Assembly (NCBI GenBank): GCA_934096555.1
Contig: CAKOMD010000004.1
Coordinates: 12,792 to 76,791 of the forward strand
Source of the DNA: an uncultured Bacilli bacterium
GTDB taxonomy: Bacteria; Bacillota_I; Bacilli_A; RF39; UBA660
Length of the DNA: 64,000 bases
Direction: 5' to 3'
The first letter of the stretch is position 1; each line of letters opens with the position of its first letter. Positions 17,439 through 43,368 of this stretch are shown one piece after another. The position numbers were made by a program, and so were the translations under genes. The notes beneath the pieces are model-generated. The model was not told where the DNA came from, made no database searches, and was given only the letters and a program-made list of their open reading frames with translations.

Positions 17439-19616
17439 TTAATCATCTGAGAAAAAGTCATCAAAGAAATCGTCATCACTTGTATTATCTGTATACATAT
17501 TTTGTAGTTTTTCTTCTGCTGTATTATCTTCTTTAGGTACTGATGCTTTTTCATCACTTTGTGTTAAATCATTAAATGATATGTTTTCTTTATCTGCTAT
17601 TGGTTTAGCTGGCTCCGAAATTACATCTACTGGTTTTTGCTCTTTTTCTTGTTCCTTAGTTTGTTCTTCTTCTCTTTCAATTTCCGCTATTTTAGCATCG
17701 ATCTTCTTAACTAAATCGTCTATGTTGAAACTATCTTCTTCAGGTTCTTGTCTTTCTTGATTACCTAAGAAGCTAGGCATACCGCTACCAAATGGATTTG
17801 GAGAAGGACTAGCAAATGGATTTGAACCACCAAATGGGTTACTCATAAATGGATTAGATGAAGAAGTAAATGGATTAGACATATTAGGATTAAATTCTCC
17901 CATTGCGGCCATCTTTTCTTGCTTCTTTGCTTTAACAAATTCTCTTATATCAAATAATTGTAACTCTCTCTTTGGTCTTGCTTCTGGAGTACTTTTTGGA
18001 TATGTTCTACCCCAATCAACTTGGAAGTCTGTTTGAAATTTTGTTTTATATGGAAACATTCTTCTTCTTAAAACAATTATTTCAAACTGATTTAGTCTTT
18101 GTAAATCACTTACTGTTACTAAAGGTGTTGAAGCAGTTTTATCTTTTTCTTTTGATTTTACTTCACCACACATTTTACTTATTTCTTCAAGAGCTGCTAT
18201 TTCGCTACTTATCAAATATAGTAAATTACAGTTACCGCGAATAGTATCACCATTCTCTTTACCATACACTTGGGTTAACTGTGCGAAGTTTTGAATAATA
18301 AAGGTAAATCTAATTAATCTACTTCTAGCGGCAGTAACCATTGTTGTAACATCTTTTAAAGGTGGCATATTGGCAAACTCATCTAGAATAAAGTTAGTTC
18401 TATATGGTAACTTTCCACCACTTTCTTGAGCAACATCTATCAATGTTTCATAACATTGTTTAATGAATATTGTAGCAAGGGGATGTAATGTTTTCTTTTC
18501 ATCTTGAACTATTAAGAAAACTGCTGTTTTCTTTCTACCAATATCACGCATATCAAAATCGCTATAAGATAGCATTTCTGATAAATTTTCTCTTGATGAG
18601 AATAATTTTATTTTTTGTTTAAAAGTTGCTATGATACCCTGTTTTGTTTCATCCGCAGTGAAAACAGTACCTGAGGCATTAATATATGCAGGTTTAGATG
18701 GATCTTTGGCATTAAAGTATTCTTTTATATAGTTATTGTTTGGACCGCCAAATCTTTCTTCACCTAAGCTACTCATTAAGTTTATACTATTTAAATTTAC
18801 TTGGGCTGGTGATGCATCTTCAAATAATCCTAATGCAAGACCTGTAAAATAGTCTGCAGCTGTTTTTTCCCAGAATGGATCGCCGCTACTTTTTTCTTCA
18901 TATAATATATTTAATGCTAAGTCATCAAGTAACTCTATGGCTTTATCGGTATTGCCATCTTTATATAATTGGTAAGGTAGACTCATAGGATTCCATGCAT
19001 TTCCATGTTGTGGGTCCCTAAAATTTAATGTAACTATATTATAACCTTCATCTTTTAGTAATGCTGCTGTCTCCTCATACAACTCACCTTTAGGGTCAGT
19101 TAGTATCATTGACTCGTTATGCTTAGCTAATAATTTTATCATTGGTTTAGCTACTATTACAGTTTTACCAGAACCAGTAGCACCCATAACTAACCAGTGG
19201 TCTTCACCATTATCAACCCACATTTTACCTTTCTTACTATATAAGGCTATACCAGCTGCTGGTATTGTTTGATCTTTAATGTTAACTACTTCAAGACCTT
19301 TTTTAAATTCAGCATCAGTTGCCCATCTCGAATAGCCTTTTTCTTTCTTTGAACCTATACTAAAACCAAAGCCCTTTTCACGATCAAAAATATATGATTT
19401 AACTGCTAGAAAAAGTCCTACTAGAGATGCTATAAATAAGAATAATGTCATACCTATATATCTAGAAGTAAAGGCTTTAAATGGTAAAAATCCATAAAAC
19501 TTATTAGTTGAAGCTAAACTACTTACATTTAATACTCCTATAGCACATAAATATAATAGAAATACGCAAAAAATTATAAATATAATTAAATCTTTCTTTT
19601 CTACTTTTATTTTCAT
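17439..19616 (-). CDS. Type IV coupling protein (VirD4/TraG family) with a long disordered C-terminal tail
   Basis: Two N-terminal TM helices, Walker A GATGSGKT, Walker B/TraG motif FILDEFANMP. The tail has six NPF repeats and the acidic end DDDFFDDFFSDD. Confidence 0.88.
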   Translation of the reverse strand: MKIKVEKKDLIIFIIFCVFLLYLCAIGVLNVSSLASTNKFYGFLPFKAFTSRYIGMTLFLFIASLVGLFLAVKSYIFDREKGFGFSIGSKKEKGYSRWATDAEFKKGLEVVNIKDQTIPAAGIALYSKKGKMWVDNGEDHWLVMGATGSGKTVIVAKPMIKLLAKHNESMILTDPKGELYEETAALLKDEGYNIVTLNFRDPQHGNAWNPMSLPYQLYKDGNTDKAIELLDDLALNILYEEKSSGDPFWEKTAADYFTGLALGLFEDASPAQVNLNSINLMSSLGEERFGGPNNNYIKEYFNAKDPSKPAYINASGTVFTADETKQGIIATFKQKIKLFSSRENLSEMLSYSDFDMRDIGRKKTAVFLIVQDEKKTLHPLATIFIKQCYETLIDVAQESGGKLPYRTNFILDEFANMPPLKDVTTMVTAARSRLIRFTFIIQNFAQLTQVYGKENGDTIRGNCNLLYLISSEIAALEEISKMCGEVKSKEKDKTASTPLVTVSDLQRLNQFEIIVLRRRMFPYKTKFQTDFQVDWGRTYPKSTPEARPKRELQLFDIREFVKAKKQEKMAAMGEFNPNMSNPFTSSSNPFMSNPFGGSNPFASPSPNPFGSGMPSFLGNQERQEPEEDSFNIDDLVKKIDAKIAEIEREEEQTKEQEKEQKPVDVISEPAKPIADKENISFNDLTQSDEKASVPKEDNTAEEKLQNMYTDNTSDDDFFDDFFSDD

Positions 19617-19745
19617 ATAAAAATCTTTCCTTCCAATTAACTACCAATATTATAGCATTAATAATTTGAATTGTAAATAAGTTTAATATAAAAGAAAAGG
19701 CATTCCTTAAAAGATGGTCCTGCCCTTTCTTTGAGTATTTATTTC

Positions 19746-20606
19746 TTAACTTTTTAAATATATATCTACTTTATAATTCATAATAGATTCTTCATTGAAT
19801 ACAAACTTGTTACCATTTTTGTCAATAACAGAATATACTCTATTATTCTTTATTTTTTCCATTAAACATTTATCCGCTGAAGTTGATATTTGTTTGATAT
19901 TACTATTCATATATTGTTTATAAGAATCAATAGTATCAAATTCAGCCTGTTTCTTCATACTATCACTAAGTAAGGAATATGATGAAGTTATATCATTTCT
20001 TACCTTTTCAATATAGTCAGATAAGTATAAAGAGCATATTTCCTCTTTAGTAACTATACTAGGATTATTTACTTTATTATAATCATTACTATTGATACTT
20101 ATTTTTTTTATTTTGTTAATTATTTTTGTATAATCTGTTTTATTGTCAATTGGATAAAATGATACAGTTAAATTGTTTAAATCCTTTAATATTATTATTT
20201 GAAAACCATCATCAATTTCTTTAGTACTATCATAATTATTCTGAATAATACTTCCTTTTAAGTAATAAATATAATTATTCATAACATTTACTGAAGTTAT
20301 TGTACTTGCCTTTGCTGATGTATTTTTTGGATATGTTATTATTTTATCCAATACATTGTCTATGGTTATTTCATTATTTGATATATAATCTTCATCTAGT
20401 AAAGAATAGATAGCTTCTTTATTATTACTACTAGCATAGTTAACATATTTATTTACACTACTAACTATTGAAAAATAATCATTATATTCACTTACTGCTG
20501 CTAGTTTATCACTATTACTTTTTATATTTAATATTAAAACAATTGCTAGTGGTATTACGCAAACAAGTATTACTACAATTAGTGTTTTTATATCATCTTT
20601 TTTCAT
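19746..20606 (-). CDS. Bitopic membrane protein, possible VirB8/TcpC-like T4SS component
   Basis: One N-terminal TM helix plus an extracytoplasmic domain of about 250 aa. The call rests on its position between the hydrolase and the T4CP, with no motif support. Confidence 0.3.
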   Translation of the reverse strand: MKKDDIKTLIVVILVCVIPLAIVLILNIKSNSDKLAAVSEYNDYFSIVSSVNKYVNYASSNNKEAIYSLLDEDYISNNEITIDNVLDKIITYPKNTSAKASTITSVNVMNNYIYYLKGSIIQNNYDSTKEIDDGFQIIILKDLNNLTVSFYPIDNKTDYTKIINKIKKISINSNDYNKVNNPSIVTKEEICSLYLSDYIEKVRNDITSSYSLLSDSMKKQAEFDTIDSYKQYMNSNIKQISTSADKCLMEKIKNNRVYSVIDKNGNKFVFNEESIMNYKVDIYLKS

Positions 20607-20618
20607 ATGTATCACCTT

Positions 20619-21800
20619 TTATTTACAACCATTTTTTACATAGTTAACGAATTCACTGCTACTTTCTCCTCTTTTAGTACAAGTATTTTTTGTATCATTA
20701 GGTCTTTCAAAATTATAGCAAAAATCATATGTTAGCTCTTTACTTGAGGATGTTCCTTCGGAAACTCCTTTATAAAGTGTTGGATAGTTATTTTCTAATT
20801 CATATAATAGAAAACTTATTTGTCCCCCTATTGTATCGTAGTTATTAGGAAAAGTTGTCTTCAGATTATTCCATCTTTCATTATGCCATTGGCATAATCC
20901 ATAACTGGTTGGTACACCATTTTCATAATCACCATATGCGTTATAATCAAATGAACTTTCATGATTGATATTAGTCATTAATGCAATTATTCCATTTTCT
21001 GATATTCCATTTGCTCTTAATGTTAAGCAAACACTTTGCTTATTAGAATCACCATCAACAGAACCACCATATTTGCTCTTTGGTCTAGGATTAGTTGCAG
21101 ATATATAGTTGCTTGGATCAACATAACTACCATTGACCATAACTCCAAAATGTAGATGTGCCCCTGTCGAAGAACCACTATTTCCTATTTTTCCAATGAC
21201 TTGACCTTGTTTTACTTTATCTCCAGAACGAACTGTAATACTATTCTTAGCCATATGAGCATACACTGTATAAGTACCATCAGCATGAAGAATTTTAACG
21301 AAGTTTCCAAAGCCACCACCATCAGTATTTCCATAATAACCATTATCATTATATTGTACATCACTATCTGATGACGGATATACAACTTCTCCTTCTTCAG
21401 CGGCAATTACATTTACTGTTCCTATTCCACCTGTTCCTGGAGATATATCTAGGCCATTATGATTGCTTGTTCTAAAGCCATCATCGCCACCAAACTCTGA
21501 TGTAATGGTAATACTTACAGGTTCACCATCAGCATATGTTACACCATTTTCAGTTCTTGTCTCTGAACTTCCTACTGGCCACCAATATGTATTTTTTTCT
21601 TTTATATTGGTATAATCTCCATATGCATAAGATCCATTTATAATGCTATCTTCTAGACCTATGCTATCAACCCAAAGTGGTGTCGTTAATATTACAATAA
21701 ATATTACCGGTAAAAAAGTTATTACTAATCCTATTGATAGTATTATCATTTTTTCTTTTAATGACAAACTTTTCCACTTATTTAATAAAATTTTCCACAT
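20619..21800 (-). CDS. T4SS-associated cell-wall hydrolase: M23 peptidase plus lysozyme-like domain
   Basis: N-terminal TM helix. M23 motifs HNGLDI and GNSGSSTGAHLHF. The C-terminal part (NINHESSFDYNAYGD ... GLCQWHNERW) resembles the phage-tail-lysozyme family. Confidence 0.8.
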   Translation of the reverse strand: MWKILLNKWKSLSLKEKMIILSIGLVITFLPVIFIVILTTPLWVDSIGLEDSIINGSYAYGDYTNIKEKNTYWWPVGSSETRTENGVTYADGEPVSITITSEFGGDDGFRTSNHNGLDISPGTGGIGTVNVIAAEEGEVVYPSSDSDVQYNDNGYYGNTDGGGFGNFVKILHADGTYTVYAHMAKNSITVRSGDKVKQGQVIGKIGNSGSSTGAHLHFGVMVNGSYVDPSNYISATNPRPKSKYGGSVDGDSNKQSVCLTLRANGISENGIIALMTNINHESSFDYNAYGDYENGVPTSYGLCQWHNERWNNLKTTFPNNYDTIGGQISFLLYELENNYPTLYKGVSEGTSSSKELTYDFCYNFERPNDTKNTCTKRGESSSEFVNYVKNGCK

Positions 21801-21825
21801 TAATATCACCACCTAATGGAGATTA

Positions 21826-23610
21826 TTATAAGCCTCCACCTGAACCAAATGACTCTAACTCATCTTCTGTTACTGTTACATTTATTTGCATTCTTCTATT
21901 ACCACATACAAATAATGCTTCACCTTGGCTAAATCTCTTTATACCTTCTTTTTCATTTTCATTTAAATCTATTAACATTGATAAGTCTTCAACTGATTGT
22001 TTCTTTAATCCCATAACTAAATAATATGAAGAGTTATCAAATATTGCCTTACCATGCATTAATATTCCATCTGCTACAAAGTCTGATGGCTGCTGAGTAA
22101 TTATTATTGTTCCTGTATTGTATTTTCTTGCTCTTCTTTGAACTTGAGCTAAGAATTCTGCACCTAGTTCGTTTTTAGCTCCTAATAATACATGGGCTTC
22201 ATCTACTGATAATACTGTGTTTTTACTTGGATCTAAACATAGTCCCCAAGCAAACTTAAGTACATTAAATAATAGTGCATTTCTTATGTTAACATCTGAA
22301 TTCATTAATTCTTTTATATTGAATACTAGGAAATCACTATCAGTATTTATTGAAGTATGACCATTAAAGTAATATTGTAATTCTCTTACAAACGGTCTTA
22401 ATTTTAACTCTAGTCTTTCCATAACATCTCTTTCATGAGTTTTCTCAGTCATTGATGTTAGCTTGCTTGTTACTGTTACATATACATCACTAAATGTTGG
22501 AAATTGACTTGATGTAAACTTAGTAAAATCTGAAGTAAATGTTATTCCAAATCTAGCATACGTATCTTGTACGACTTCACTAAATAGTGTTAGTACATCA
22601 TCTTCAATATCTGGCGCATAATACTTCATGAATGCTTTTAATGATTGCAAAGTTTTATTAAGTACAGTGTAACCTAATCCTGACCTTATTTCATTTTCAT
22701 CAGCATCCATTATTATTTCAAGTGGATTTACCATTCCGTATTCTCCACCCTTACCTAAGTCTACTACATCGCCACCATACATTTTTGTCATTTCACTTAT
22801 TTCACCCTCAGGGTCGACTGCTACTATTTGATAGCCATTTCTTATATGACTACGAAGTATTAATTTAGCTGCTGTTGATTTACCTGATCCTGAAGTACCT
22901 AATATAATCATATTAGCATTATTTCTATTGCTTTCTTTTCTTATTTGATATAAGAACTGATTAAATAGTACAACACCACCAGAGAAATCCACACCAAGAA
23001 GTGTTGATAATCCATCATCTTTGATGCTATCAAAGATGAATGGATACATTGCTGCCATTGTTGGAGATGGCATTGGCGTACCAATTCTACTTTCTATTAT
23101 TTGTTTGTCAAATATAGGAAGGATAGATTTCAATACTCTTTCTTGTTCAAATCTAAGAGGTATTGCTCTCATTTCCATGGCATCAAGATAATTTTTAATA
23201 CTAACTTTCTTGTTTTCCAGTTCTTCTCTAGTATCAGCAGTAATCATTATATGCATTTGAAAATCAAATGTTTTTGCTTGTGAAGCAGTAAACTGCTGAA
23301 TAAAATATTCTAATGAGTCAACATCTTGTCTAATTCTTTCTTGAATAGTTCTATCTCTTTCTTGTTGATACTTACTTTTTAAATCTGCTATTTCTTTATT
23401 TAACATTTTGGCAAGTACAGAAAATGGTAATGGAATATGCTTAATAACCATTTTTACACCTGACATATTAGTTAAGTTAGATAAATAGCCTGGCCCAATT
23501 AATCTAGGATAAGATATTACTGTTAATATAGTTGCATATTTATCACTAATAACAAAATCTGCTGGATTAAATTGTAATCCTTTCGGAGCTAGTTCACTTT
23601 TAAAATTCAT
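21826..23610 (-). CDS. VirB4-family T4SS ATPase, central and C-terminal part
   Basis: Walker A GTSGSGKST and Walker B VLSVDEAHVLL. The N-terminus APKGLQFNPADFVISDKYATILTVISYP corresponds to the middle of full-length Firmicute VirB4 proteins. Confidence 0.88.
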   Translation of the reverse strand: MNFKSELAPKGLQFNPADFVISDKYATILTVISYPRLIGPGYLSNLTNMSGVKMVIKHIPLPFSVLAKMLNKEIADLKSKYQQERDRTIQERIRQDVDSLEYFIQQFTASQAKTFDFQMHIMITADTREELENKKVSIKNYLDAMEMRAIPLRFEQERVLKSILPIFDKQIIESRIGTPMPSPTMAAMYPFIFDSIKDDGLSTLLGVDFSGGVVLFNQFLYQIRKESNRNNANMIILGTSGSGKSTAAKLILRSHIRNGYQIVAVDPEGEISEMTKMYGGDVVDLGKGGEYGMVNPLEIIMDADENEIRSGLGYTVLNKTLQSLKAFMKYYAPDIEDDVLTLFSEVVQDTYARFGITFTSDFTKFTSSQFPTFSDVYVTVTSKLTSMTEKTHERDVMERLELKLRPFVRELQYYFNGHTSINTDSDFLVFNIKELMNSDVNIRNALLFNVLKFAWGLCLDPSKNTVLSVDEAHVLLGAKNELGAEFLAQVQRRARKYNTGTIIITQQPSDFVADGILMHGKAIFDNSSYYLVMGLKKQSVEDLSMLIDLNENEKEGIKRFSQGEALFVCGNRRMQINVTVTEDELESFGSGGGL

Positions 23611-24167
23611 TATGAAATCACCGTCCCAAAATTAGTTGTCATTCCACTATTAAGGAAATTATCAAGTATTATTCTTAAATCATCATTAGATACTTGTTTA
23701 GACTCTAAACCTGCATTAGCAAGTCCAGTAATTAGAGTTCTAAGTCTCTTTTGTATCAAATCATCATTCTTTTCTTTAAATAATATATAATACTCAGTAT
23801 CAGTAATATTATTATTCATGAAATCATTGGCCTTATCTATATCTTGATTGATTAACTTTCTAACTGCTGGATTAGGGGTTTGATTATATAATAATTGTAA
23901 TCTAGCAAGATAGTTATTTAAATCTACTGGTCTATCTGCAGATATTAACCAAAACTCAAAATCTATTGTATTATAGAAATTTTTTAAAGCTATTATTGTA
24001 TTATCTTGTGTACCTTGATCCAAGATAAAGATATTTCTTGGCTTTATTTTTACCCCTGTTACTTTTAGTTTGTTATCAAGTATTATTGTACCATTAGCAA
24101 TAGATTTAATTGGTAACCAATCTTCAGTATACTTTGAATTATTTTTTGTCGTCGCCAAATTTTTCAT
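23610..24167 (-). CDS. VirB4 N-terminal domain encoded as a separate ORF (start uncertain: 24167 or 24245)
   Basis: EDWLPIKSIANGTIILDNKLKVTGVKIKPRNIFIL...FWLISADRPVDL matches the usual VirB4/TcpF/PrgJ N-terminus. Its stop overlaps the next ATG as TAATG. Confidence 0.65.
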   Translation of the reverse strand: MKNLATTKNNSKYTEDWLPIKSIANGTIILDNKLKVTGVKIKPRNIFILDQGTQDNTIIALKNFYNTIDFEFWLISADRPVDLNNYLARLQLLYNQTPNPAVRKLINQDIDKANDFMNNNITDTEYYILFKEKNDDLIQKRLRTLITGLANAGLESKQVSNDDLRIILDNFLNSGMTTNFGTVIS

Positions 24168-24459
24168 AGAAACACCAACCTCTCCATATATAATTTCTTC
24201 TTTCTGTAAAAAATCTAAATATACTTTGTATAGCACATAAAACATTATGATAATTAGGTATTGGTACTACCAGTAGGCCAGTTACGCCTACTGGTAAACA
24301 TGATAACAATATCATTGCTGTATTGCTTGAATCAACAAGTATTAATAATAATAAAGTTACTGCCATTCCTGTACCAAACATAATTAAATCAAATGGTCTA
24401 AATATATTAAATATCAATGTACCTCTTTTAGCGTTAGCAGGTACTAAAAATCCATTCAC
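24139..24459 (-). CDS. PrgI/VirB3-like small membrane protein
   Basis: 106 aa with two TM helices, a LIFNIFRPFDLIMFG start pattern and a basic C-terminus RRNYIWRGW. Located immediately upstream of VirB4. Confidence 0.6.
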   Translation of the reverse strand: MNGFLVPANAKRGTLIFNIFRPFDLIMFGTGMAVTLLLLILVDSSNTAMILLSCLPVGVTGLLVVPIPNYHNVLCAIQSIFRFFTERRNYIWRGWCFYEKFGDDKK

Positions 24460-26663: not shown

Positions 26664-26680
26664 TATTAACCTCCTTACTT

Positions 26681-32268: not shown

Positions 32269-32269
32269 T

Positions 32270-32872: not shown

Positions 32873-32901
32873 ATTTTACATAATTTGGTAATATTTGTCA
32901 A
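32873..32901 (-). promoter_or_regulatory. Consensus sigma-A promoter
   Basis: Minus strand reads TTGACA (32901-32896), exactly 17 nt, TAAAAT (32878-32873). The ATG at 32842 has a GAGGGGGAAAAG RBS. Confidence 0.65.
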
Positions 32902-32916
32902 GTATTTTTAATTAAA

Positions 32917-32941
32917 AACTAACGTTAGTTAAACGTTAGTT
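32917..32941. promoter_or_regulatory. Perfect 14-bp palindrome AACTAACGTTAGTT plus an extra half-site; putative operator
   Basis: aactaacgttagtt (32917-32930) followed by a-aacgttagtt (32932-41). Centred about 25-40 bp upstream of the -35 hexamer. Confidence 0.4.
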
Positions 32942-32944
32942 TGA

Positions 32945-33987: not shown

Positions 33988-34065
33988 TTTGCTCCACCTT
34001 CTAGTATAATTTTACTAAATTTTTATAATCTTGTCTAATCAAAAATAAAAAACGCTTATCATGCG

Positions 34066-35544: not shown

Positions 35545-35727
35545 TTATTCGCATCTGCTTCCATTCCAAGTTTGTCCTTCAGGACATACGTTGTTAGCAT
35601 TTCCACCAAATGCATTATTGATAGTTTCAGTTATTTTTGGCCACATAAGTGCTAAAATACCACCAATTACTGCTACTGCTACAATAACTATTACTGTCAT
35701 TGATACTTCACCTGTTGCTTCTTTCAT
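35545..35727 (-). CDS. Flp-like small prepilin with a C-terminal Cys pair
   Basis: 60 aa, MKEATGEVSMTVIVIVAVAVIGGILALMW... ending CPEGQTWNGSRCE. GGTGA RBS. Immediately downstream of the TadB/C-like genes. Confidence 0.5.
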   Translation of the reverse strand: MKEATGEVSMTVIVIVAVAVIGGILALMWPKITETINNAFGGNANNVCPEGQTWNGSRCE

Positions 35728-35785
35728 CACTTTTCACCTTCTTTCATATATTATTTTTTTATTCTTTTCTATATATTTCTAATCT

Positions 35786-36577
35786 TTAGAAACTCATTAT
35801 CATAAAGATTGAAATCAGTAGTAATCCAAGAGATCCAAAACCTGTTACACACATCATAATCATGGTTTTTCTCTCCATAGTATCAAGTCTAGCCTGATAC
35901 TTCATTTCTCTTGATTTTGCTTGAAGAGATGATACTGATTTAGAGAAGGATACTAATTGTTGATGTTTCTTTTCTTGTTCTCCTAGTCCTAATCTATATA
36001 ATAATCTCATCATTCTCATTGAATCTCTTACTGGATATTCTTTAGCAAAATCCATATATGGATCTATTGAAGAATCTCCAGCCTCTATTCTTGCTACTAG
36101 TCTTTTTAATCCTGGTTTAAATACTTCAGGGGCATCATCTATACTTTTAGCTAAAGCTACTGGTACTGTATAGTGATGAACTAGTACTTCTAAACTTTTT
36201 AAGTAATATGGTAATAAGGAATCTATATAATTTAGATGTTTTTTATACCAACTTCTAAGAGAAGTATATTGCTGTTTATATACTAGATATCCTACTACAA
36301 TAGCGGCTATTACTGTTAAGTAACTCATTTGTGATAGGAATAAGAATATTAATGCAGCTGCAACAATAACGCCGTTTCTTATTCTTTTCATGAATACTTC
36401 ATTTGGGTCATATACTCTATCTCCATATTTAGCTATTAATAGAAAGTCATAATCCTTTTCTTTTAACAAATTACATAGTTTGTTATTATTACCAAAGATA
36501 CTATCTTTATCTATTTTTCCATTTACCATAAATATATATATTACTATTATGGCTATTATTAGCATTTCTATATACAT
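35786..36577 (-). CDS. TadC-like (T2SS-F family) polytopic membrane protein
   Basis: 263 aa with TM helices at the N-terminus, middle and C-terminus. Overlaps the preceding paralogous gene by 1 nt. Confidence 0.5.
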   Translation of the reverse strand: MYIEMLIIAIIVIYIFMVNGKIDKDSIFGNNNKLCNLLKEKDYDFLLIAKYGDRVYDPNEVFMKRIRNGVIVAAALIFLFLSQMSYLTVIAAIVVGYLVYKQQYTSLRSWYKKHLNYIDSLLPYYLKSLEVLVHHYTVPVALAKSIDDAPEVFKPGLKRLVARIEAGDSSIDPYMDFAKEYPVRDSMRMMRLLYRLGLGEQEKKHQQLVSFSKSVSSLQAKSREMKYQARLDTMERKTMIMMCVTGFGSLGLLLISIFMIMSF

Positions 36578-37482
36578 TATTCGGCACCTACATTCTCGTT
36601 ATAATATTTTTCTCCTGATAGAAGAAAATAACTATTTATTAAGACAATACCATGTATTAGTATTCGAATTAATGTATTATCAATCATAGATATATATGTT
36701 TCTTGTCCTATTAATATTTGAATAAGGGCTACCATTCCATATAGAGCTACTCCAAAGGTTAGAAATTGTTTATGGAAGTTTGCTCTATCTGTTCTATCTC
36801 GATATACGCCTTCTACTAAGATGTCTATATCTGATAACATGTTTTCAAATGTTTCTGCTGTATCCTTGGCACCCTCTTTAGTTACTTGTAGAAATAACTG
36901 ATGCATATTTTTTACCATATAATATGGATATTTGGTATCCATATATTTTATTGAATCATAGACATCACCTTTTTCATAAGATAGTGCTATCATTGTTTTT
37001 ACATCAGATAAAAGTGGTTCTTCAAGTATTCCTGATTCTACTACTCCCTCTAGTGATTTTACAAAGGCCTGAGTAGTAGCAAATTCCATTATGGTATTGG
37101 TGCAATATACTTGTACTTGTTCAAATATATATTCACTGTATTGTCTTTTGCATCTTAAATATGTTATGTATGGTATAAATGATACCGCTACTATGATATA
37201 TACTAATGATATCAAGATGTTATAGAAGTACAAATAACTTATGCCACCTGCTAATCCAGCAAAGGCTATTAGTTGAAATAGGTATTGTCTTGGAGTATAC
37301 TCTAGTCCTAGTTCTTTTACCTTTTCTCTCATTATTTTAAATGAGTATGGTTCTATTTTTTTATATGTATTTATAGCCTGCTGCGAGATAAACTTATATA
37401 CTGATTCTCCCTGCTTAGTACGATAAGATACTATAAATATTATTATTAAACCTATTAGGATGATTTCCACTTCTATCACCAC
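36577..37482 (-). CDS. TadB-like (T2SS-F family) polytopic membrane protein
   Basis: 301 aa with the same topology. Directly follows the ATPase gene. Confidence 0.5.
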   Translation of the reverse strand: MVIEVEIILIGLIIIFIVSYRTKQGESVYKFISQQAINTYKKIEPYSFKIMREKVKELGLEYTPRQYLFQLIAFAGLAGGISYLYFYNILISLVYIIVAVSFIPYITYLRCKRQYSEYIFEQVQVYCTNTIMEFATTQAFVKSLEGVVESGILEEPLLSDVKTMIALSYEKGDVYDSIKYMDTKYPYYMVKNMHQLFLQVTKEGAKDTAETFENMLSDIDILVEGVYRDRTDRANFHKQFLTFGVALYGMVALIQILIGQETYISMIDNTLIRILIHGIVLINSYFLLSGEKYYNENVGAE

Positions 37483-37483
37483 C

Positions 37484-38818
37484 TTAACTTATATTTTGAT
37501 CACTATTTATACTTGCTACATTTATACTTGTTGGTGCACTAGGTGCTGAAGCATAAATATTTGGTATATTATTAGGAGGAGTTACCACATTACTAGTATT
37601 CATGGTACTTACCATATTATTATTTGGCGTACTTGTTACTGGATTATTGATAGCTGGAGTATTATAAATTGTATTTTGTACTCCAGTATATAGACTATGG
37701 TCTACTACGAACTCTCCTACCTTATCTTTATTTATTATATCATTATTTTCGCTACTAGTAAACTCTTCTTTTACTAAAATATCTGGAGGCATTATTACCC
37801 CTTGACTTTCTAGATATGAAAGTAAGTATTTGGACGGATTAGCAGTTGTTTCTTTTCCATCTGGAGTCTTTTTATATAGTATTTTATATTCTGCCTTATT
37901 ATCGTCTGTAACATAGAATTCTACTACCTCTGATACTTCTCTATGAAAGGCATTATATTTAGTACTATAATATCCTTTTATGTGTACTCCTAATTGTACA
38001 TATCTATGAATTGTTTTTAAAAACTGATCTATATCTTGGCTTGTTTCTAGTAGGCTATACATTCTACTTGGAATTGATTCTGCTTTATCAGCATGAATTG
38101 TTGATAAAATATTATGTCCAGAAGATATTGAGTTTCTAACAGCCATTACTGCTTCAGCACTTCTTACTTCGGATAGTAATATCCATCTTGGGTTCTGTCT
38201 CATACAAGTAACTAATACATCTGAATATGATGCTATATTATTTGTTTTCATGGCAACAATATCTCTATGTGGAAATATTTTATCTAAGTGTAACTCTAAT
38301 GTATCTTCGATTGTTATTATCTTTTCATTTTCTTTGGTATGGGCTGCTAGATATTTTATGAACTCTGTTTTACCACTACCAGTTTCACCACTTACCATAA
38401 TGTTACAATGTCCTTCAACGCATTTAAGTAGAAAATCATGAATATTTAGTCTTATGTAATCTTCTGCGATTATTTTATCTTTTTGTAATCTTATTTTAGC
38501 AGGTGTCTTTCTTATTAATACTGCTATACCATTTCTAGCTATGGAATCATGTACAAAGTTCATTCTTAACTCTGCTGATTCGGCATCAAGAAAGGGATTA
38601 GCCATATTAAACGACTTGCCCATTGAATTAGCACACTGAAAGGCTATTTTTTCCATTAGAGCATTATCTATTCCAGTATTTTCTACTCTATATACGCCTT
38701 TAGATAATGACTTTAGCCATACTTGACCACCATTATCGTAAGATATATCGGTTATATCGTCATTATCAAGAAATTGTTTTAATGGACCAAAATCTATTTG
38801 ATTAAATTGATTGTCCAT
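37484..38818 (-). CDS. CpaF/TadA-type secretion ATPase with an N/T/P-rich C-terminal tail
   Basis: Walker A SGETGSGKT, ITIEDTLEL, Walker B ILLSEVRSAEA, His box GHNILSTIHA. The last 90 aa or so are low complexity. Confidence 0.85.
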   Translation of the reverse strand: MDNQFNQIDFGPLKQFLDNDDITDISYDNGGQVWLKSLSKGVYRVENTGIDNALMEKIAFQCANSMGKSFNMANPFLDAESAELRMNFVHDSIARNGIAVLIRKTPAKIRLQKDKIIAEDYIRLNIHDFLLKCVEGHCNIMVSGETGSGKTEFIKYLAAHTKENEKIITIEDTLELHLDKIFPHRDIVAMKTNNIASYSDVLVTCMRQNPRWILLSEVRSAEAVMAVRNSISSGHNILSTIHADKAESIPSRMYSLLETSQDIDQFLKTIHRYVQLGVHIKGYYSTKYNAFHREVSEVVEFYVTDDNKAEYKILYKKTPDGKETTANPSKYLLSYLESQGVIMPPDILVKEEFTSSENNDIINKDKVGEFVVDHSLYTGVQNTIYNTPAINNPVTSTPNNNMVSTMNTSNVVTPPNNIPNIYASAPSAPTSINVASINSDQNIS

Positions 38819-38832: not shown

Positions 38833-39669
38833 TTAGTTATTGTTTGTATTAGTTGTATCTTCAGTTACATTATCACTTACTTGTGGTAAATCGTCTACTG
38901 ATACAAATGCTGTTTTAGAATTTATGAATTCTTCTATTTGAAGACTGCTTACTGTTACTTTTTGGTCTTCAGATAATGTTGCAGTATTTGGTATTAATAA
39001 TAATTCTACATCATAGTCTGTTAGATATAATGCTTTTCTTAATAATAGGTGTGTTTCTTCTGGTACTGCAAATAGCATATATGCAGGAGTTCTAGCTTCA
39101 TCACTATTTTCAAATACATGTCTACCTGATGAATCTTTAACATCTAGTACTTCAATATTACTGATGAATTTACCAAACATTACTTCTCCATCGTCATTTA
39201 ATGATTTGTAATAGATATTGATATGACTACCTGGAGCCATTGAGTTAGCGTATGTAGTTGCTATTGTTACTGGATAGTTTATTACAGTATATCCTTCTGG
39301 TACTCCTGAAAAAGCTGAATCCGGTAAGTCTTTTTCGTCTACCACTAAATCTGTATAGAATAAACTTCCTTTAGCTATCATAGTATTATAATTAGAATAT
39401 TTTCCTACGATACTTTTGGCTGTGGTATAGTACTTACTAGTATTAAGTAGTTCTATAGGAACATTTCTAATCTCTATCATATCGTCTGTTATGTATGTTC
39501 TTGGTTGTATTGTTTGTTTAGCAACAGGTACTGCTACTAATTCTGTTTTAGAATTTATTCTATAATTATAACCAATATATAATATTACTAAACATAATAT
39601 TACCCCTAGTATGGTAACGGTATTTTTGTTACCAAAAAATTTTTTCATTGATGCTTTTAAATTATTCAT
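38833..39669 (-). CDS. CpaB/RcpC-like Flp pilus assembly protein
   Basis: N-terminal TM helix, then a SAF-like segment VAVPVAKQTIQPRTYITDDMIEIRNVP...GKYSNYNTMIAKGSLF. Confidence 0.6.
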   Translation of the reverse strand: MNNLKASMKKFFGNKNTVTILGVILCLVILYIGYNYRINSKTELVAVPVAKQTIQPRTYITDDMIEIRNVPIELLNTSKYYTTAKSIVGKYSNYNTMIAKGSLFYTDLVVDEKDLPDSAFSGVPEGYTVINYPVTIATTYANSMAPGSHINIYYKSLNDDGEVMFGKFISNIEVLDVKDSSGRHVFENSDEARTPAYMLFAVPEETHLLLRKALYLTDYDVELLLIPNTATLSEDQKVTVSSLQIEEFINSKTAFVSVDDLPQVSDNVTEDTTNTNNN

Positions 39670-39701: not shown

Positions 39702-40592
39702 TTATTTTGCATACTCATATTCATTATAATTCCATGTTATTTCTAATTTTAACACTGTTGTTCCTGGACTTCCTGTTCCTGTCCATTCTATCCAATATTT
39801 TGATTCTTCACATTCTTCAGTAGTTAAACACATTCTTCCTTTTATGCTAGTTACTGTAATATTTTTTTGGATGTTATTTATATTCGTAATATTATTACTA
39901 GCATCAAAGTTAGTTTGTTCATTGCTACTTCTAGTCCAATCTATATCTCTATTTAATAGAGCATATAATAGTTCTCCTTCTTCTGTTACATTTCCTTTGC
40001 TTGAAGCCTTGGATATTTTAACATCATAAACGTTGCTATGATTTAGTTCATCGGGTAAATTGATTGGCTCTTTTACTGAATAGTTACCAGAACTACTATA
40101 AGGTATTGAGTAATAAATCTTGGTAAAGGCTTTATTTATTAATGGTGTTCCATTTACATAACTTTCACCACTTTTAGATCCATCTTTACCATAATATTCT
40201 AATATTGCACTTAAAGTATTAGCAACATGATAATCGGATGTATCTTGATAAATCGTGTACTCTCCTATTCCAGTATTTATTGACACTGTTACCTTAGGTG
40301 GTTCTTCCATAATATCAAAATAATTTATTGTATAATTGCTACCTGCAAATACTGTTGATTCTGCAAATCTTCTAGTAAAGCTTTCTACAAATTTATCTTT
40401 AATTATTTTTAATTCTCCAGTTTCTCTATAATAATCCATATTGATGGCATCAATCATTGAGGCTTCAGTTACTTCCTTAAGTAGGTAATAATCATTTTCG
40501 TTATTTGTAGTTATATTTTGAAATAATATTATGATGGTTAAGCCAACTAATCCAAATACTATTAATCCAACACTAGTAAATGACCATTTCAT
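39702..40592 (-). CDS. N-terminally anchored extracytoplasmic protein (pilus-associated?)
   Basis: MKWSFTSVGLIVFGLVGLTIIILF anchor. 4-nt overlap with the upstream gene. Confidence 0.5.
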   Translation of the reverse strand: MKWSFTSVGLIVFGLVGLTIIILFQNITTNNENDYYLLKEVTEASMIDAINMDYYRETGELKIIKDKFVESFTRRFAESTVFAGSNYTINYFDIMEEPPKVTVSINTGIGEYTIYQDTSDYHVANTLSAILEYYGKDGSKSGESYVNGTPLINKAFTKIYYSIPYSSSGNYSVKEPINLPDELNHSNVYDVKISKASSKGNVTEEGELLYALLNRDIDWTRSSNEQTNFDASNNITNINNIQKNITVTSIKGRMCLTTEECEESKYWIEWTGTGSPGTTVLKLEITWNYNEYEYAK

Positions 40593-42682
40593 GAATTACC
40601 ACCTTCTTTGATATAATTTCTAAAGAAATCTTTATCCACTTCATTAAAGTAACTATGATTTTTATTATATTCTTTTATCTCACTTATTGTTTTATTATCT
40701 AGTTCAGTATAGTATTCTAGCTTTTTATATGAATCTTCAAGTGTCTTTTTATCTTTATTTCCTTCAGTTATATACCAGGTATACCAATTAACTCCTGGGA
40801 ATCTACTAGGAAATGGATTATTTAAATTTATTGGTCTATATGTAAATTTATATCTTACTTTACCATTTTCTTTTTCACCACTTGATGGTTCATATATTCT
40901 GTTAGTTACTTTTAATAAACAGCTTGTATCAATAGTCCAAGTGCCAAACCATGCTTTATTTTTGTTTGTTGAATCTTTTTTTGCCTGCGTCTCAGATAAT
41001 CTACTTAAGTTTTCTAATGTTACGTTTATGTTATACTTTTGTATATCTAATGGTATATAATATTTATTATTAATATTAGCATTATCATTAGATTCTGAAT
41101 AACTCACTTTACCAGTTAGTTCTTTTAGATATGATTCTGGTAAAAAGAATGTACATGTTGTTATTAATTTATTGGCAGTAGTAAATGCTCCTGACTGAGT
41201 ACATTTTTTAACAAGCCTTGAACTATCTAATCCAGTTATTGTTAATGTTATATTTTCTTCAAAGTCTGATAATGATTTTAATTTGTTTTGCATTGCTTCA
41301 TCAATATCTTTTCTTTGAGCAGTAGTCAGTACTTTGTTAGTAGCATAATTCCAGCTAACTTCATTATAGTAGGTGATTCCATATTTTAGCCAGCCGCCAT
41401 TATAACTATTGGCATTATAATTTTTATCTTCGTTTACCAAATTGGATTTAAATACATTTGATATATATCCTTTTTGTTCTATCTTTACTACTGCGCTAGT
41501 TCCATTGTTTCTTACTGTTAGCTCATTACAAGTTGACGACAAATTAGTCCAACTATTGCAACTCATTGTCTTGTTAGATGCCGGCTCTGATACAGCACAT
41601 TTTTTATCATTCTTTACATTAATTTTAAATGATGTGTTACCTGTAGGTATTACCCAAGAAGACCATGCAACTTTTGGAGAACTTGAACCTGGTGGGCAAA
41701 TTTCTCTGGTACCATCACTACCACTTATACCAGCAGTTCCTATCAAGAATCTTCCAGGGCCATATGTGTTATTGGGAAAACTGTTTTTTTGCGCTTCTAA
41801 ATAACCATTTTGAAATCCGATGCTATTGCTTTTTGATACTATGCTATAAGTGGAGCCTACTGCTCCTATACATTCTTTTATTTCTTTACCATTTTCTGTT
41901 TCTAGATTTTCATTGCTTATCCAAGCAGTTGTTGCTATAAACTTTACTGTTTTTGAAAAACTTGTTTTATCTATTTGAATATAATCATTTCCACTATTAC
42001 CTTTAAGCAAACCTTTTCTTATAAACAATGATTCATATGCAGCTGTCCTGTTTCCAGTCTTTTTTTGATAATCTGTATTTGTAGCGGCTATTTCAAAATA
42101 GACATCACTTTCTTCAGGGACATTAAGCCATTCTCCTTGACGAACGTTAAAGCTTATATCAAATCCTAAATCCTCATAGTAACAGTTACTACCATCTTTA
42201 TTAGTATTACATTTGTTATCCCAAACTAATCCTACCGGAAATGTATATGTTGTTTCATTATATAATGTTTTGGCTTCATCTTTACTATTTAAATTGTAAT
42301 ACATTTGCTGATAAAAATTATATTTTTTCCCATTTACATTTTTTTGACCTTCAATCTCTTTTGTCTCTATTATGGTCTTTCTACCATTTTTCAAATAATA
42401 AGCTCTAATAAATATTCTTTGACCACCATTTGTAGATGTACTATTATCTGAAAATGTTACATTAAGTATTTTATCAGTTTCATTACCATTACTATCCATT
42501 TTATTAACTGTTACAAAGTTGTGAGTTTGATGTAAGAAAGCCCATCCTTTAAAATTAATTGTACCATCTGGGGTTATTTTAAGATCGGTTACATCATATC
42601 TTAATTCTCCTACTACTGCATTTACTTTTCCTATCATTAATACGAACAATATGATAGCTACAAAGATGTATCTTTTTCTCAT
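40589..42682 (-). CDS. Large secreted Cys-containing protein (697 aa)
   Basis: Signal peptide MRKRYIFVAIILFVLMIGKVNA. At least 14 Cys residues. No recognisable domain. 4-nt overlaps on both sides. Confidence 0.6.
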   Translation of the reverse strand: MRKRYIFVAIILFVLMIGKVNAVVGELRYDVTDLKITPDGTINFKGWAFLHQTHNFVTVNKMDSNGNETDKILNVTFSDNSTSTNGGQRIFIRAYYLKNGRKTIIETKEIEGQKNVNGKKYNFYQQMYYNLNSKDEAKTLYNETTYTFPVGLVWDNKCNTNKDGSNCYYEDLGFDISFNVRQGEWLNVPEESDVYFEIAATNTDYQKKTGNRTAAYESLFIRKGLLKGNSGNDYIQIDKTSFSKTVKFIATTAWISNENLETENGKEIKECIGAVGSTYSIVSKSNSIGFQNGYLEAQKNSFPNNTYGPGRFLIGTAGISGSDGTREICPPGSSSPKVAWSSWVIPTGNTSFKINVKNDKKCAVSEPASNKTMSCNSWTNLSSTCNELTVRNNGTSAVVKIEQKGYISNVFKSNLVNEDKNYNANSYNGGWLKYGITYYNEVSWNYATNKVLTTAQRKDIDEAMQNKLKSLSDFEENITLTITGLDSSRLVKKCTQSGAFTTANKLITTCTFFLPESYLKELTGKVSYSESNDNANINNKYYIPLDIQKYNINVTLENLSRLSETQAKKDSTNKNKAWFGTWTIDTSCLLKVTNRIYEPSSGEKENGKVRYKFTYRPINLNNPFPSRFPGVNWYTWYITEGNKDKKTLEDSYKKLEYYTELDNKTISEIKEYNKNHSYFNEVDKDFFRNYIKEGGNS

Positions 42683-43368
42683 TCTAATACACCTCTTTTC
42701 TTTCTCTTATTAACAATAATTATAATTATCAATATTATTAATACTACTGCTAAAACGGATACTATATACAGTTGATATTTAGTTATAAGTGATATAGCTT
42801 TGTCTAATATTTCTGTAAAATAATTACCTTTTTTTGGAGTATTATCTTCTGGCTTTATATCTTTTGCTTTTTTATATTCTTCTAGTTTTTTTACAAATGT
42901 TTCATAACTTGGCTGATATTCTAAGTATTTTGAACATAACGGAAATTCGTCGGTATTTATTCCTTCACACAATGGATCTAAAGAATATGAATTAAACTTT
43001 GGTAATTTAACACTTATATCCCCTATCTTTTCCTGGCAACTATTTGAATATATTGAAAATCTATATTTACCAGTAGCAATTTTATTTATAATTATTTTAT
43101 TATCATTTACTTCTTTCCACTCTTCATTATAATCATCTATTCTAATATACATATCAGTACTGATATTACTAAATGTTAAATCAAACATATAGTCTACAAT
43201 TACACCATCATCATTAGCATTGCTTCCTAAATGCTTATATGTGACTTTTACTTTATTTGCTTCCTCTTTTAATGTGTCAAGTTCTTCTTTGGTACAAGAT
43301 GCTGATACTGATAAAGTACTTAATAAAAGCATTAAAAATGTAAATATTATATAACTTATTTTTTTCAT
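42679..43368 (-). CDS. Secreted protein with a C-terminal TM anchor (229 aa); first gene of the block
   Basis: Signal peptide ending SVSA-SC. C-terminal LYIVSVLAVVLIILIIIIIV followed by NKRKKRG. Confidence 0.6.
   Translation of the reverse strand: MKKISYIIFTFLMLLLSTLSVSASCTKEELDTLKEEANKVKVTYKHLGSNANDDGVIVDYMFDLTFSNISTDMYIRIDDYNEEWKEVNDNKIIINKIATGKYRFSIYSNSCQEKIGDISVKLPKFNSYSLDPLCEGINTDEFPLCSKYLEYQPSYETFVKKLEEYKKAKDIKPEDNTPKKGNYFTEILDKAISLITKYQLYIVSVLAVVLIILIIIIIVNKRKKRGVLE

Follow-up and report, generated by a model that had tools for sequence, protein, structure and literature searches.

Genes of the locus

We analyzed a 64-kb stretch of DNA, hereafter the window, from contig CAKOMD010000004.1 of an uncultured Bacilli bacterium. 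Its positions 17439-43368 hold a 26-kb block in which a Tad-like module is joined to the genes of a Gram-positive type IV secretion system (T4SS), with a variable cassette between the two. The original prediction, a reading of the letters alone, had described a minus-strand-only block with short gene overlaps, and this description holds: all credible open reading frames (ORFs) in 17439-43368 lie on the minus strand, with overlaps of 1-4 nt at 23610, 35064, 36577, 40589-40592 and 42679-42682. The orientation is shared by nearly the whole window, however, where a simple ORF map gives ~60 genes: 43490-43930 and 45090-45689 are the only two credible ones in the 64 kb with plus-strand orientation, and GC skew is < 0 across the whole stretch with the block and its flanks. 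Consequently, the co-directionality of the block is real but uninformative. Protein families were assigned by Pfam scans of all block proteins (E <= 0.01) and nearly all flank proteins (E <= 1e-5), and by NCBIfam models. The parts of the Tad-like module, and the gene that adjoins it, are as follows.

42679-43368, minus strand: first gene of the module, encoding a 229-aa protein that has a signal peptide and is membrane-anchored at its C-terminus (from sequence)
40589-42682, minus strand: 697-aa secreted protein (signal peptide), a putative adhesin, fast-evolving
39702-40592, minus strand: DUF5411 protein that begins with a hydrophobic helix and corresponds to pLS20 gene 36 (Pfam DUF5411, 1e-50)
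38833-39669, minus strand: CpaB/RcpC-like protein (NCBIfam pilus_cpaB TIGR03177, 7e-4)
37484-38818, minus strand: CpaF/VirB11-family secretion ATPase (Pfam T2SSE, 6e-27)
36577-37482, minus strand: T2SSF(TadB)-like polytopic membrane protein that corresponds to pLS20 gene 38 (family profile)
35786-36577, minus strand: T2SSF(TadC)-like polytopic membrane protein that corresponds to pLS20 gene 39 (family profile)
35545-35730, minus strand: 60-aa pilin-like protein with a conserved N-terminus, MKEATGEVSMTVI, and a variable, Cys-containing C-terminus
35064-35516, minus strand: 150-aa minor-pilin-like (TadE/DUF4320-like) protein, N-terminus M[RK]EA.GGTF and then a hydrophobic helix
34066-35064, minus strand: 332-aa two-domain protein, putatively TadZ-like (conservation pattern)
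43490-43930, plus strand: divergent, membrane-anchored thioredoxin-like protein (Pfam Thioredoxin, 2e-8)

The secretion ATPase retains intact Walker A, Asp, Walker B and His boxes and is 63-100% identical among 80 species representatives. Against the sequences of the Protein Data Bank (PDB), its best match is CpaF (4e-20), followed by FlaI and VirB11 (VirB11 3e-15); among NCBIfam models, VirB11 (6e-33) and a TadA-like model (3e-30) fit it about equally, both far below their cutoffs. Judged by these matches, the ATPase belongs within the CpaF/VirB11/FlaI group. An RcpC/CpaB protein, as expected of a Tad system, is also found: 19 relatives in the CpaB-like family match Pfam RcpC (best 8e-8) and 12 match SAF. 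Two half-size T2SSF proteins beside the ATPase, likewise expected, are recognized by way of a weak, transitive link to plasmid proteins, the second of them marginally. The TadB- and TadC-like proteins gave no direct Pfam or NCBIfam match, a scan of 78 family members taken singly gave no T2SSF match, and hhalign found no paralogy between the two families. Profiles of the TadB-, TadC-, CpaB- and TadZ-like families found nothing meaningful among PDB sequences, and AlphaFold, given the TadB-like sequence alone, yielded no usable model (predicted local distance difference test score, pLDDT, 41).

In the small proteins of the module, a common N-terminus, M[KR]EA.G, precedes a hydrophobic helix. The first residues of the 60-aa protein are MKEATGEVSMTVIVIV, and its N-terminus is conserved in the window and five relatives. 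It has no Flp G/XXXXEY motif, no EY after the Gly and no match to a Flp family in Pfam or NCBIfam, and its family profile weakly matches small plasmid ORFs (9e-4 and 0.04). The 150-aa TadE-like protein has no Pfam or NCBIfam match and shows weak similarity only, to pLS20 genes 36 and 40. The putative TadZ-like protein combines a receiver-like N-terminal half with a degenerate P-loop-like motif, G.KN.T..AGATT, and has no Pfam, NCBIfam or PDB profile match. From the Tad parts list of the original prediction, the ATPase, the CpaB-like protein, the T2SSF-like pair (weakly and transitively) and the 60-aa pilin-like protein stand; the TadE-like and TadZ-like labels are putative, and the Flp motif is missing.

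At the head of the module, the 229-aa protein matches no Pfam or NCBIfam family and is kept at this position in 62 related loci (21-97% identity). The 697-aa protein is 57% identical where its neighbours reach 97%. It fills the place of Tie in plasmid pLS20 and of SpaA in pZB18, which makes it a putative adhesin by position, not by homology. In one relative (L123:16849-20977), a second partial Tad-like set follows the coupling protein, composed of a protein like the 229-aa one (A229-like), a large secreted protein, and DUF5411, CpaB-like and TadE-like proteins. A SpoIIIA sporulation channel, which would also combine an ATPase with a GspF-like protein, was rejected as an identity for the module: its sole trace is a SpoIIIAA match at E = 0.046, and the VirB4, VirD4 and VirB6 content misfits.

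The T4SS module consists of the following genes.

28616-28945, minus strand: pil109, a 109-aa two-helix VirB2/T4SS_pilin-like protein (family alignment)
26681-28516, minus strand: 611-aa secreted protein with a C-terminal T4SS_pilin-like membrane domain, hypervariable (Pfam T4SS_pilin, 4e-4, residues 530-592)
24480-26696, minus strand: VirB6-like polytopic protein with a long low-complexity tail (weak Pfam TrbL_4 and TrbL)
24139-24459, minus strand: 106-aa membrane protein, VirB3-like by position (position and weak hhalign)
23610-24245, minus strand: N-terminal part of VirB4, a separate ORF (NCBIfam VirB4_plasma positions 94-277, 9e-16)
21826-23610, minus strand: VirB4 ATPase, C-terminal 594 aa (NCBIfam VirB4_plasma positions 294-893, 1e-106)
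20619-21812, minus strand: cell-wall hydrolase in the VirB1 role (Pfam Peptidase_M23, 4e-24; Phage_lysozyme2, 1e-21)
19746-20615, minus strand: 289-aa membrane-anchored protein, variable, its VirB8 role guessed from position
17439-19616, minus strand: VirD4-type coupling protein, T4CP (Pfam T4SS-DNA_transf, 2.5e-52; TraG-D_C, 1.4e-20)

The T4CP scores 288.7 bits with the NCBIfam model conju_CD1115, above its cutoff of 250; a promoter-like site at 19649-19677 belongs to its gene, and an exact-sequence look-up of the window's T4CP returned no record. The C-terminal VirB4 ORF also matches the CD1110 family (6e-54) and Pfam P-loop_TraG and AAA_10, and the N-terminal ORF matches Pfam TraC-like in relatives. 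The VirB6-like protein matches the NCBIfam models Mbov_0396 (2e-10) and MMCAP2_0566 (3e-10). The 106-aa protein is present in 71 loci at 40-96% identity, and its family aligns weakly with pLS20 gene 50/DUF5592 (hhalign 35%, E 4e-4). Relatives have SpoIID+CHAP or NlpC/P60 enzymes instead of the M23+lysozyme hydrolase. The 289-aa protein has no Pfam or NCBIfam match and was negative against VirB8-like/DUF6556 proteins in hhalign. The parts that define a monoderm T4SS, namely VirB4, a VirD4-type T4CP and VirB6-, VirB1- and VirB3-like proteins, are therefore all found here, the VirB3-like one weakly, and the parts list given earlier for this half (T4CP, VirB4, here split, hydrolase, VirB6- and VirB2-like proteins) is borne out.

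Among the pilin-like proteins of this module, pil109 has invariant Cys7 and Cys102, 18 of its 26 family members match Pfam T4SS_pilin (best 1e-5), and its gene stays behind the Tad-like module even in loci that have no T4SS. The 611-aa protein occupies the position of pLS20 gene 46 and of a 609-aa protein in pZB18; between strains with flanks > 95% identical, it is 26-36% identical. Because thioredoxin-like neighbours accompany conserved pilin cysteines, a dedicated disulfide-forming helper is suggested, and the thioredoxin-like protein at 43490-43930 is a candidate for the oxidoreductase that would form disulfides in the pilins and adhesins with cysteines. Its gene adjoins the Tad-like module even in relatives where trmL is missing from this place. 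In the window, trmL is flanked by two membrane-anchored thioredoxin-like/PedC-like (DUF6568) proteins, at 43490-43930 (plus strand) and 44434-44952 (minus strand). The T4CP has a low-complexity, acidic C-terminal tail, DDDFFDDFFSDD. NPF/NPY low-complexity repeats occur in the tails of the T4CP (residues ~575-610) and the VirB6-like protein (~640-720), and they may be an interaction code between these two proteins.

Two features lie between the modules.

29024-33897, minus strand: variable cassette between the modules (paralogy and strain variation)
28991-29016, no strand: perfect 26-nt palindrome, GTAATTGTCAAATAATTGACAATTAC, overlapping the TTGACA -35 box upstream of pil109, the first T4SS gene

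In the cassette, the paralogues 29024-29710, 29712-30419 and 31603-31875 share a ~145-aa C-terminal domain ending in a Lys-rich tail. A 340-aa protein with an HEIEH motif (30554-31576), a CrtO-like acyltransferase (32270-32842; Pfam CrtO, 4e-12) and small ORFs make up the rest; besides CrtO, no known family was found among the cassette proteins. Its content varies by strain and is missing or replaced in many relatives; the TadZ-like gene and pil109 lie 45-300 nt apart in many loci, and two distant relatives (L005 and L116) have versions 30-40% identical. The cassette proteins could be T4SS substrates or exclusion/immunity factors. A terminator-like hairpin (34051-34067) overlaps the stop codon of the TadZ-like gene, and the palindrome before pil109 looks like a repressor operator, which would make the site a candidate operator and promoter.

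The variation between strains extends beyond the cassette. Compared with two conspecific contigs, that of UMGS1185 (L016+L096) and L010, DNA identity is 96-100% outside ~24.5-34.0 kb, that is, over the flanks, the genes from the T4CP to the VirB3-like protein and the Tad-like module. The remaining ~9.5 kb is unalignable or < 80% identical to the same contigs and includes the 29.0-33.9 kb cassette together with the outer part of VirB6, the 611-aa protein and pil109. The exchange of cell-surface parts between strains, with the motors kept, is in keeping with selection for partner specificity, or for evasion of phages or host immunity.

Relation to pLS20-type plasmids and other systems

As judged from sequence comparison, the 26-kb block corresponds, in a chromosome, to the central part of the conjugation operon on pLS20-type Gram-positive plasmids, with which it is collinear. 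In a tblastn search of plasmids, the best matches of the window's ATPase (~34-36% identity) were the 'VirB11-like ATPase' of pLS20-family Bacillus plasmids and Enterococcus plasmids, with 35.6% identity (4e-44) to the pLS20-family protein (gene 37). The operon of one such plasmid, pBatNRS213, is annotated with, in order, the adhesin Tie, gene 36 (126 aa), the VirB11-like ATPase and membrane proteins of 267 and 245 aa; it continues with a DUF4320 protein (120 aa), two 47-aa proteins, a 78-aa protein, two 363-aa proteins and VirD4, and then with an extended VirB6, 103-aa and 192-aa proteins, VirB4, VirB8-like and VirB1-like proteins, Aux1, Aux2, relaxase and primase. Enterococcus faecium pZB18 has the same layout, with a TrbC/VirB2-family gene and then the 609-aa protein. 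In B. badius pPM400, the two proteins that flank the ATPase are annotated T2SSF (Pfam T2SSF ~1e-5; 2.7e-5 for protein a).

Profiles of the window's families were searched against a set of 65 plasmid proteins. The TadC-like profile found pPM400 T2SSF protein a (7.8e-9) and pLS20 gene 39 (3e-5; hhalign 91%), and the TadB-like profile found pPM400 T2SSF protein b (2e-4) and pLS20 gene 38 (2e-3; hhalign 66% over 199 columns). The DUF5411 profile reached gene 36 of pBatNRS213 (4.6e-5), which itself (L176:10402-10782) matches Pfam DUF5411 at 6e-5, and the VirB6-like profile reached pLS20-family gene 49 (1.4e-6); the window's VirB4 pairs with pLS20 gene 52. Gene 45 of pBatNRS213 (L176:14977-15213) matches Pfam T4SS_pilin above the cutoff. 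In the 2021 paper on the pLS20 family, genes 36 and 38-47 are listed as unknown, a VirB11 homologue alone is noted, and a VirB2 homologue is said to be absent (PMC8557374).

The likeness to pBatNRS213, pZB18 and pPM400, in gene order as well as content, therefore spans an adhesin, gene 36/DUF5411, a CpaF/VirB11 ATPase and two membrane proteins of ~250-300 aa; pilin-like proteins of 120-150 aa and several of 47-66 aa, a T4SS_pilin (gene 45) and a large protein whose C-terminus is a membrane domain; and VirB6, a ~100-aa protein, split VirB4, a hydrolase and a CD1115-type VirD4. In contrast, only the plasmids encode a relaxase, Aux1/Aux2, a primase, SSB, proteins for replication and partition, and systems of surface exclusion and quorum control. 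VirD4 stands before VirB6 in the plasmids and is the last gene in the window's block, where CpaB/RcpC-like and putative TadZ-like genes occur that are not annotated in pLS20. Identities are low (ATPase 36%, VirD4 25%, VirB4 21%). The original prediction had assumed that Tad loci normally stand alone and that their junction with a T4SS is unusual; this premise has to be corrected and the idea of an unprecedented hybrid moderated, because pLS20-type plasmids embed the same ATPase, T2SSF pair and small pilins in the same order. Since these operons share the architecture, the junction of Tad-like and T4SS genes is a trait of this T4SS lineage, not a one-off fusion.

Other known systems resemble the locus in part. 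The best NCBIfam models for VirB4 (the Mbov_0397 family) and VirB6 (Mbov_0396, MMCAP2_0566) are those of Mycoplasma integrative and conjugative elements (ICEs), which likewise have no recognizable relaxase; the host lineage of the window is filed near the Mollicutes. The window's scores are below the cutoffs of these models, however (VirB4 357.5 vs 590 bits, VirB6 40.4 vs 70 bits), which makes the locus a relative, not a member, of the Mycoplasma ICE T4SS. Mycoplasma ICEs are mobile and carry a DDE recombinase, whereas Pfam scans find no DDE transposase in the window. The proposal of a Mollicutes-ICE-like element is thus correct as to the closest VirB4 and VirB6 families and fails as to mobility, of which the locus has no sign. 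Mycoplasma ICE machinery transfers chromosomal DNA (PMC12857230); these ICEs are without VirB1- and VirB8-like parts (PMC12857230), and no Tad-like module has been described for them.

The chromosomal T4SS of Patescibacteria, related to MPF_FATA, is also monoderm, lineage-wide, found in small-genome and mostly uncultured hosts, usually without a relaxase, and equipped with VirB2-like pilins (PMC12102498, PMC12857230); it works alongside type IV pili (PMC12102498, PMC12857230). Patescibacteria are a different phylum, and the likeness is one of locus features. Their type IV pilus and T4SS genes have not been described as forming a single collinear stretch, and essentiality and an epibiotic lifestyle are shown for Patescibacteria. 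In the IncI R64 thin pilus and Pseudomonas aeruginosa PAPI-1, a type IV filament is encoded with VirB4/VirD4 conjugation and assists it or is needed for it (PMC12857230), but these systems have diderm hosts and type IVb rather than Tad-like pili, and they are mobile elements with relaxases.

With Tad/Flp (type IVc) systems, the locus has in common an ATPase of the CpaF/VirB11 family, a CpaB-like protein, a pair of platform proteins of T2SSF type and short pilins, and the divergent Tad-like locus of the gut clade TANB77 likewise needs more than a simple sequence search to be recognized (PMC11680825). Unlike them, it is without the Flp G/XXXXEY motif and a prepilin peptidase, its TadZ-like protein is putative, it is linked to a T4SS, and its ATPase is as close to VirB11 as to CpaF by sequence. 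Gram-positive T4SSs are said to lack VirB11 and pilins (PMC12857230, PMC4027160), with Patescibacteria given as the one exception, for VirB2/VirB5 (PMC12857230), and nearly all are said to move mobile-element DNA only (PMC12857230, PMC4027160). Contrary to these reviews, the locus and the pLS20-type plasmids form a monoderm T4SS lineage with a CpaF/VirB11 ATPase, a T2SSF platform, and Flp-like and VirB2-like small proteins. In the literature on RF39 with T4SS or Tad, on DUF5411, and on pLS20 with Tad, we found no description of this locus.

The locus in related genomes

Related loci, numbered with the letter L, were collected in two scans, one anchored on the ATPase with one genome per species (80 loci) and one anchored on VirB4 in metagenome contigs (80 loci). 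The relatives are UMGS1185, Clostridium sp. CAG:302, CAG:321, CAG:914, CAG:628, Ca. Fimihabitans, Ca. Onthocola and many gut 'Bacilli bacterium' metagenome-assembled genomes (MAGs); the best 120 matches in both the T4CP and ATPase protein searches are 73-92% identical. NCBI places Ca. Fimihabitans in Mycoplasmatota incertae sedis, and we take the genera UMGS1185, CAG:302, CAG:914 and Ca. Fimihabitans to be members of the GTDB order RF39. This order is an uncultured, reduced-genome clade (PMC11680825), and one relative (L088) is a circular MAG of 1.20 Mb.

The block lies at the same site in these relatives. After the T4CP come rhodanese, yunB, sufB, amidase, SSB, XRE, asnS and PFOR genes, as in the window (T4CP then rhodanese in 26/41 loci), and before the Tad-like module come queH, a PedC-like gene, trmL and the thioredoxin-like gene. 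Divergence of the block follows that of its flanks: VirB4, T4CP and SufB are 97%, 92% and 99% identical to the window in L001 and 91%, 79% and 88% in L109, and T4CP identity ranges from 92% down to about 55% across relatives with conserved flank order. The ORFs and ATPase motifs are intact in > 150 loci, and the base composition and GC content of the block are those of its flanks (window G+C ~28%). The same site, the co-divergence with the flanks and the matching composition together argue for vertical inheritance of a fixed chromosomal locus, not an ICE. The comparison with related genomes that the original prediction had proposed (trmL on one side, rhodanese-yunB-sufB on the other) is thus in line with a fixed locus, and the housekeeping flanks are confirmed, with sporulation genes also there.

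Genes for DNA processing or mobility are missing, in agreement with the earlier report of no relaxase, recombinase, or replication or partition gene. Pfam scans of the block and flanks found no relaxase, no tyrosine, serine or DDE recombinase and no Rep or Par family; outside the two modules they give housekeeping and sporulation genes only. No homologue of the pLS20-family Rel, Aux1, Aux2, primase or integrase was found in the window and 175 related loci (3.0 Mb), and the cognate relaxase of a conjugative monoderm T4SS was thus not found in these sequences. In five distant relatives, Pfam scans of the interval from VirB4 to rhodanese found no relaxase, integrase or Rep, but peptidoglycan hydrolases and unrelated genes only. 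The 64-kb window has no tRNA, and no att-like repeats above chance occur at the block borders, where AT-rich 12-15-mers lie inside genes only; the longest repeat common to both flanks is a chance-level 15-mer within coding DNA.

An ordinary ICE, an integrated plasmid or a decaying remnant with its relaxase, integrase and att sites just beyond the window is thereby largely refuted and now scarcely credible, although all T4SS genes have conjugative homologues and the genomic context viewed ends near the window edges. The three marks of an ICE, an integrase or recombinase, att repeats, and an insertion present in some relatives and absent from others, were all not found. Housekeeping genes in an order conserved among relatives bound both sides, composition equals that of the flanks, with no tRNA, integrase or repeat, and the core genes, which are intact, have diverged as fast as the housekeeping genes beside them; no plasmid ATPase is > 60% identical. 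The second alternative of the original prediction, an ICE with its DNA-processing genes outside, is not supported in view of these conserved borders, the base composition, the missing integrase, tRNA and att sites, and the lack of homologues in 3.0 Mb. A prophage or plasmid origin was rejected as well, as there are no close plasmid homologues and all plasmid ATPase matches are < 60% identical.

The two modules are linked unequally. Among the 80 loci of the ATPase scan, the Tad-like module is followed by pil109 and then VirB6/VirB4 in 24, by pil109 and then the end of the available sequence in 11, and by pil109 only in 4; no T4SS gene lies within at least 5 kb in 23, and 18 are too short to judge. 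In the VirB4 scan, Tad-like genes lie directly upstream of the first T4SS gene in 38/45 evaluable loci, down to 72% VirB4 identity, and of the other 7 loci, 3 show the variable cassette of the window. The dependence is one-sided: the T4SS is almost always beside a Tad-like module, and the module is often without an adjacent T4SS. An independent occurrence of the halves in relatives, which the original prediction would have taken as evidence against a hybrid apparatus, is therefore seen for the Tad-like module and rarely for the T4SS.

These data also bear on whether the modules are two independent neighbours, a Tad-like adhesion pilus for gut colonization and a T4SS that mobilizes other elements in trans, which we consider improbable. 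Separate promoter and terminator signals would fit two neighbours, as would the variable cassette between the modules in the window, the Tad-like module standing alone in about half of the species representatives, its presence with pil109 at another chromosomal site in L006/L007, and the order trmL, pil, T4SS without a Tad-like module in L012/L013. On the other side, Tad-like genes are immediately upstream in 38/45 T4SS loci to 72% VirB4 identity, the same pairing and order occur in unrelated plasmids inside one described conjugation operon, and loci that lack the T4SS still keep the VirB2-like gene next to the Tad-like module.

A probable transfer apparatus and its possible cargo

We have good confidence in our identification of the locus, and in its being fixed and functional. 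Its best explanation, and in our judgement a fairly probable one, is a domesticated, relaxase-less transfer apparatus of the pLS20/Mycoplasma-ICE type, kept as one inherited chromosomal locus. Of the alternatives in the original prediction, this corresponds to the first, a chromosomally fixed Tad-like fibre with a T4SS, which fits best with the same site in relatives and the 38/45 linkage. We infer that the locus acts as one contact-dependent transfer apparatus, the host having kept the machine without the element's genes for DNA processing, replication and integration. The fibre part would consist of the CpaF/VirB11-family ATPase, the T2SSF-like platform pair, the CpaB-like protein, and small pilin-like and secreted adhesin-like proteins, and the translocon part of the VirB2-like pilin, VirB6, the VirB3-like protein, split VirB4, the cell-wall hydrolase and VirD4. 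The fibre and adhesin module would contact another cell, the hydrolase would open the cell wall, VirB4 and VirB6 would form a membrane channel, and VirD4 would feed a cytoplasmic substrate to it. Surface or partner specificity would reside in the hypervariable centre (outer part of VirB6, 611-aa protein, VirB2-like pilin and accessory genes).

DNA is the substrate we tentatively name as the most likely, on the grounds of the conjugative ancestry, the conserved coupling protein and the precedent of relaxase-poor chromosomal transfer in mycoplasmas (PMC12857230). Such transfer might be relaxase-independent or use a relaxase in trans, and would be chromosomal, as in mycoplasmas.

Several points weigh against this explanation. 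The T2SSF assignment is transitive, and weak for the TadB-like protein; the TadZ-like, TadE-like and VirB8-like roles are putative labels; and no Peptidase_A24 match, as expected for a prepilin peptidase, was found among the window proteins scanned, although the enzyme may be encoded elsewhere. The two modules are likely transcribed separately, because a hairpin follows the TadZ-like gene and a promoter and palindrome precede pil109. In 23/51 evaluable species representatives, the Tad-like module has no T4SS within at least 5 kb, and consequently it must have a T4SS-independent function. The substrate is one that we infer, with no oriT (origin of transfer) or relaxase known for the clade, and the T4CP is no proof of DNA transfer because coupling proteins also serve protein-secreting T4SSs. 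A trans-acting relaxase elsewhere in the genome is possible, as the searches covered the window and the related loci.

In the main rival reading, the same apparatus may instead carry another cargo, and deliver proteins or take up nutrients or signals by contact, as the T4SS and type IV pili of Patescibacteria support epibiotic life; we regard this as unlikely. Small genomes in the clade (the circular 1.20 Mb of L088; RF39 as a reduced-genome clade, PMC11680825) would be in keeping with it, as would the VirB2-like paralogues in a row in L085, L087 and L076, which recall the pilin arrays of Patescibacteria (PMC12857230). Also in keeping with it are the absence of a relaxase from every locus examined and the Lys-rich tails of the cassette proteins at 29024-30419, a positively charged C-terminus being a known signal of T4SS effectors. 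However, Pfam and NCBIfam scans found no effector, toxin or immunity family, the closest homologues are all DNA-conjugation systems, and an obligate dependence on another cell is not evident, given that the window has genes for sporulation and for ordinary metabolism.

It is very unlikely that the locus is a competence machine for DNA uptake, comparable to Helicobacter ComB or to Tad-pilus-dependent transformation. Tad pili are reported to be required for DNA uptake in some bacteria (PMC8513845), no relaxase is present, and a conserved stand-alone SSB gene lies 4 kb away. Yet DNA-uptake T4SSs are without VirD4 (PMC12857230), whereas the T4CP here is present and highly conserved, and Pfam scans found no ComEC/ComEA-like gene in the locus.

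For the domesticated transfer apparatus, what is new is its relaxase-less, vertically inherited chromosomal form across a whole gut lineage, and the recognition that this T4SS lineage embeds a type-IV-filament-like module. Genes 36-47 of pLS20 in Bacillus subtilis offer a tractable model for the embedded pilus-like module. The locus would be a second example, with Patescibacteria as the first, of small-genome, uncultured bacteria whose conjugation machine has become an organelle of the host; here they are a common member of the human gut. It gives a concrete hypothesis for DNA exchange or partner dependence in these organisms. A wider claim, which we think doubtful, is that an order-level clade of uncultured, small-genome gut Bacilli domesticated a plasmid-type conjugation machine, Tad-like fibre included, as a core organelle for routine contact-dependent exchange. 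This exchange could be relaxase-less, species-wide chromosomal 'sex', as in mycoplasma chromosomal transfer, or Patescibacteria-like acquisition from partners, and the swappable central cassette of 9.5 kb would be a mating-type or partner-specificity determinant. If this wider claim is true, pLS20-type Gram-positive T4SSs would also assemble a type-IV-filament-like fibre, against the textbook view that monoderm T4SSs lack VirB11 and pili.

The flanks of the block hold, by Pfam, DivIVA-like, histidine kinase, acyl-CoA ligase, XRE regulator, SSB, amidase, YunB and rhodanese genes, and further thioredoxin-like, TrmL, QueH, MurE, YlxM, FtsY, RNase Y, GAPDH, Gpr and RecD2/YrrC genes; PFOR, AsnRS and SufB were recognized by eye from the sequence. 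The stand-alone SSB gene and its adjoining XRE regulator (12339-13314, minus strand) lie ~4 kb from the T4CP. The SSB gene is kept at the same place in relatives L001-L005 and, because it stands outside the usual rpsF-ssb-rpsR context, may be a second, specialized copy. Two intervals, 32843-33453 (611 nt) and 9595-10298 (704 nt), contain no ORF of at least 55 aa and no Rfam family at the gathering score. The sole Rfam match in the window is the bacterial class B RNase P RNA at 234-574 on the minus strand (277 bits, E 8e-81); the plus-strand 66-aa ORF at 72-272 overlaps it and is therefore probably spurious. Sporulation and germination genes (YunB, Gpr, CotS-like and a SpoVID-N/LysM protein) lie at 16166-16906, 57776-58804 and 61842-63444, in a lineage that NCBI files as Tenericutes / Mycoplasmatota incertae sedis.

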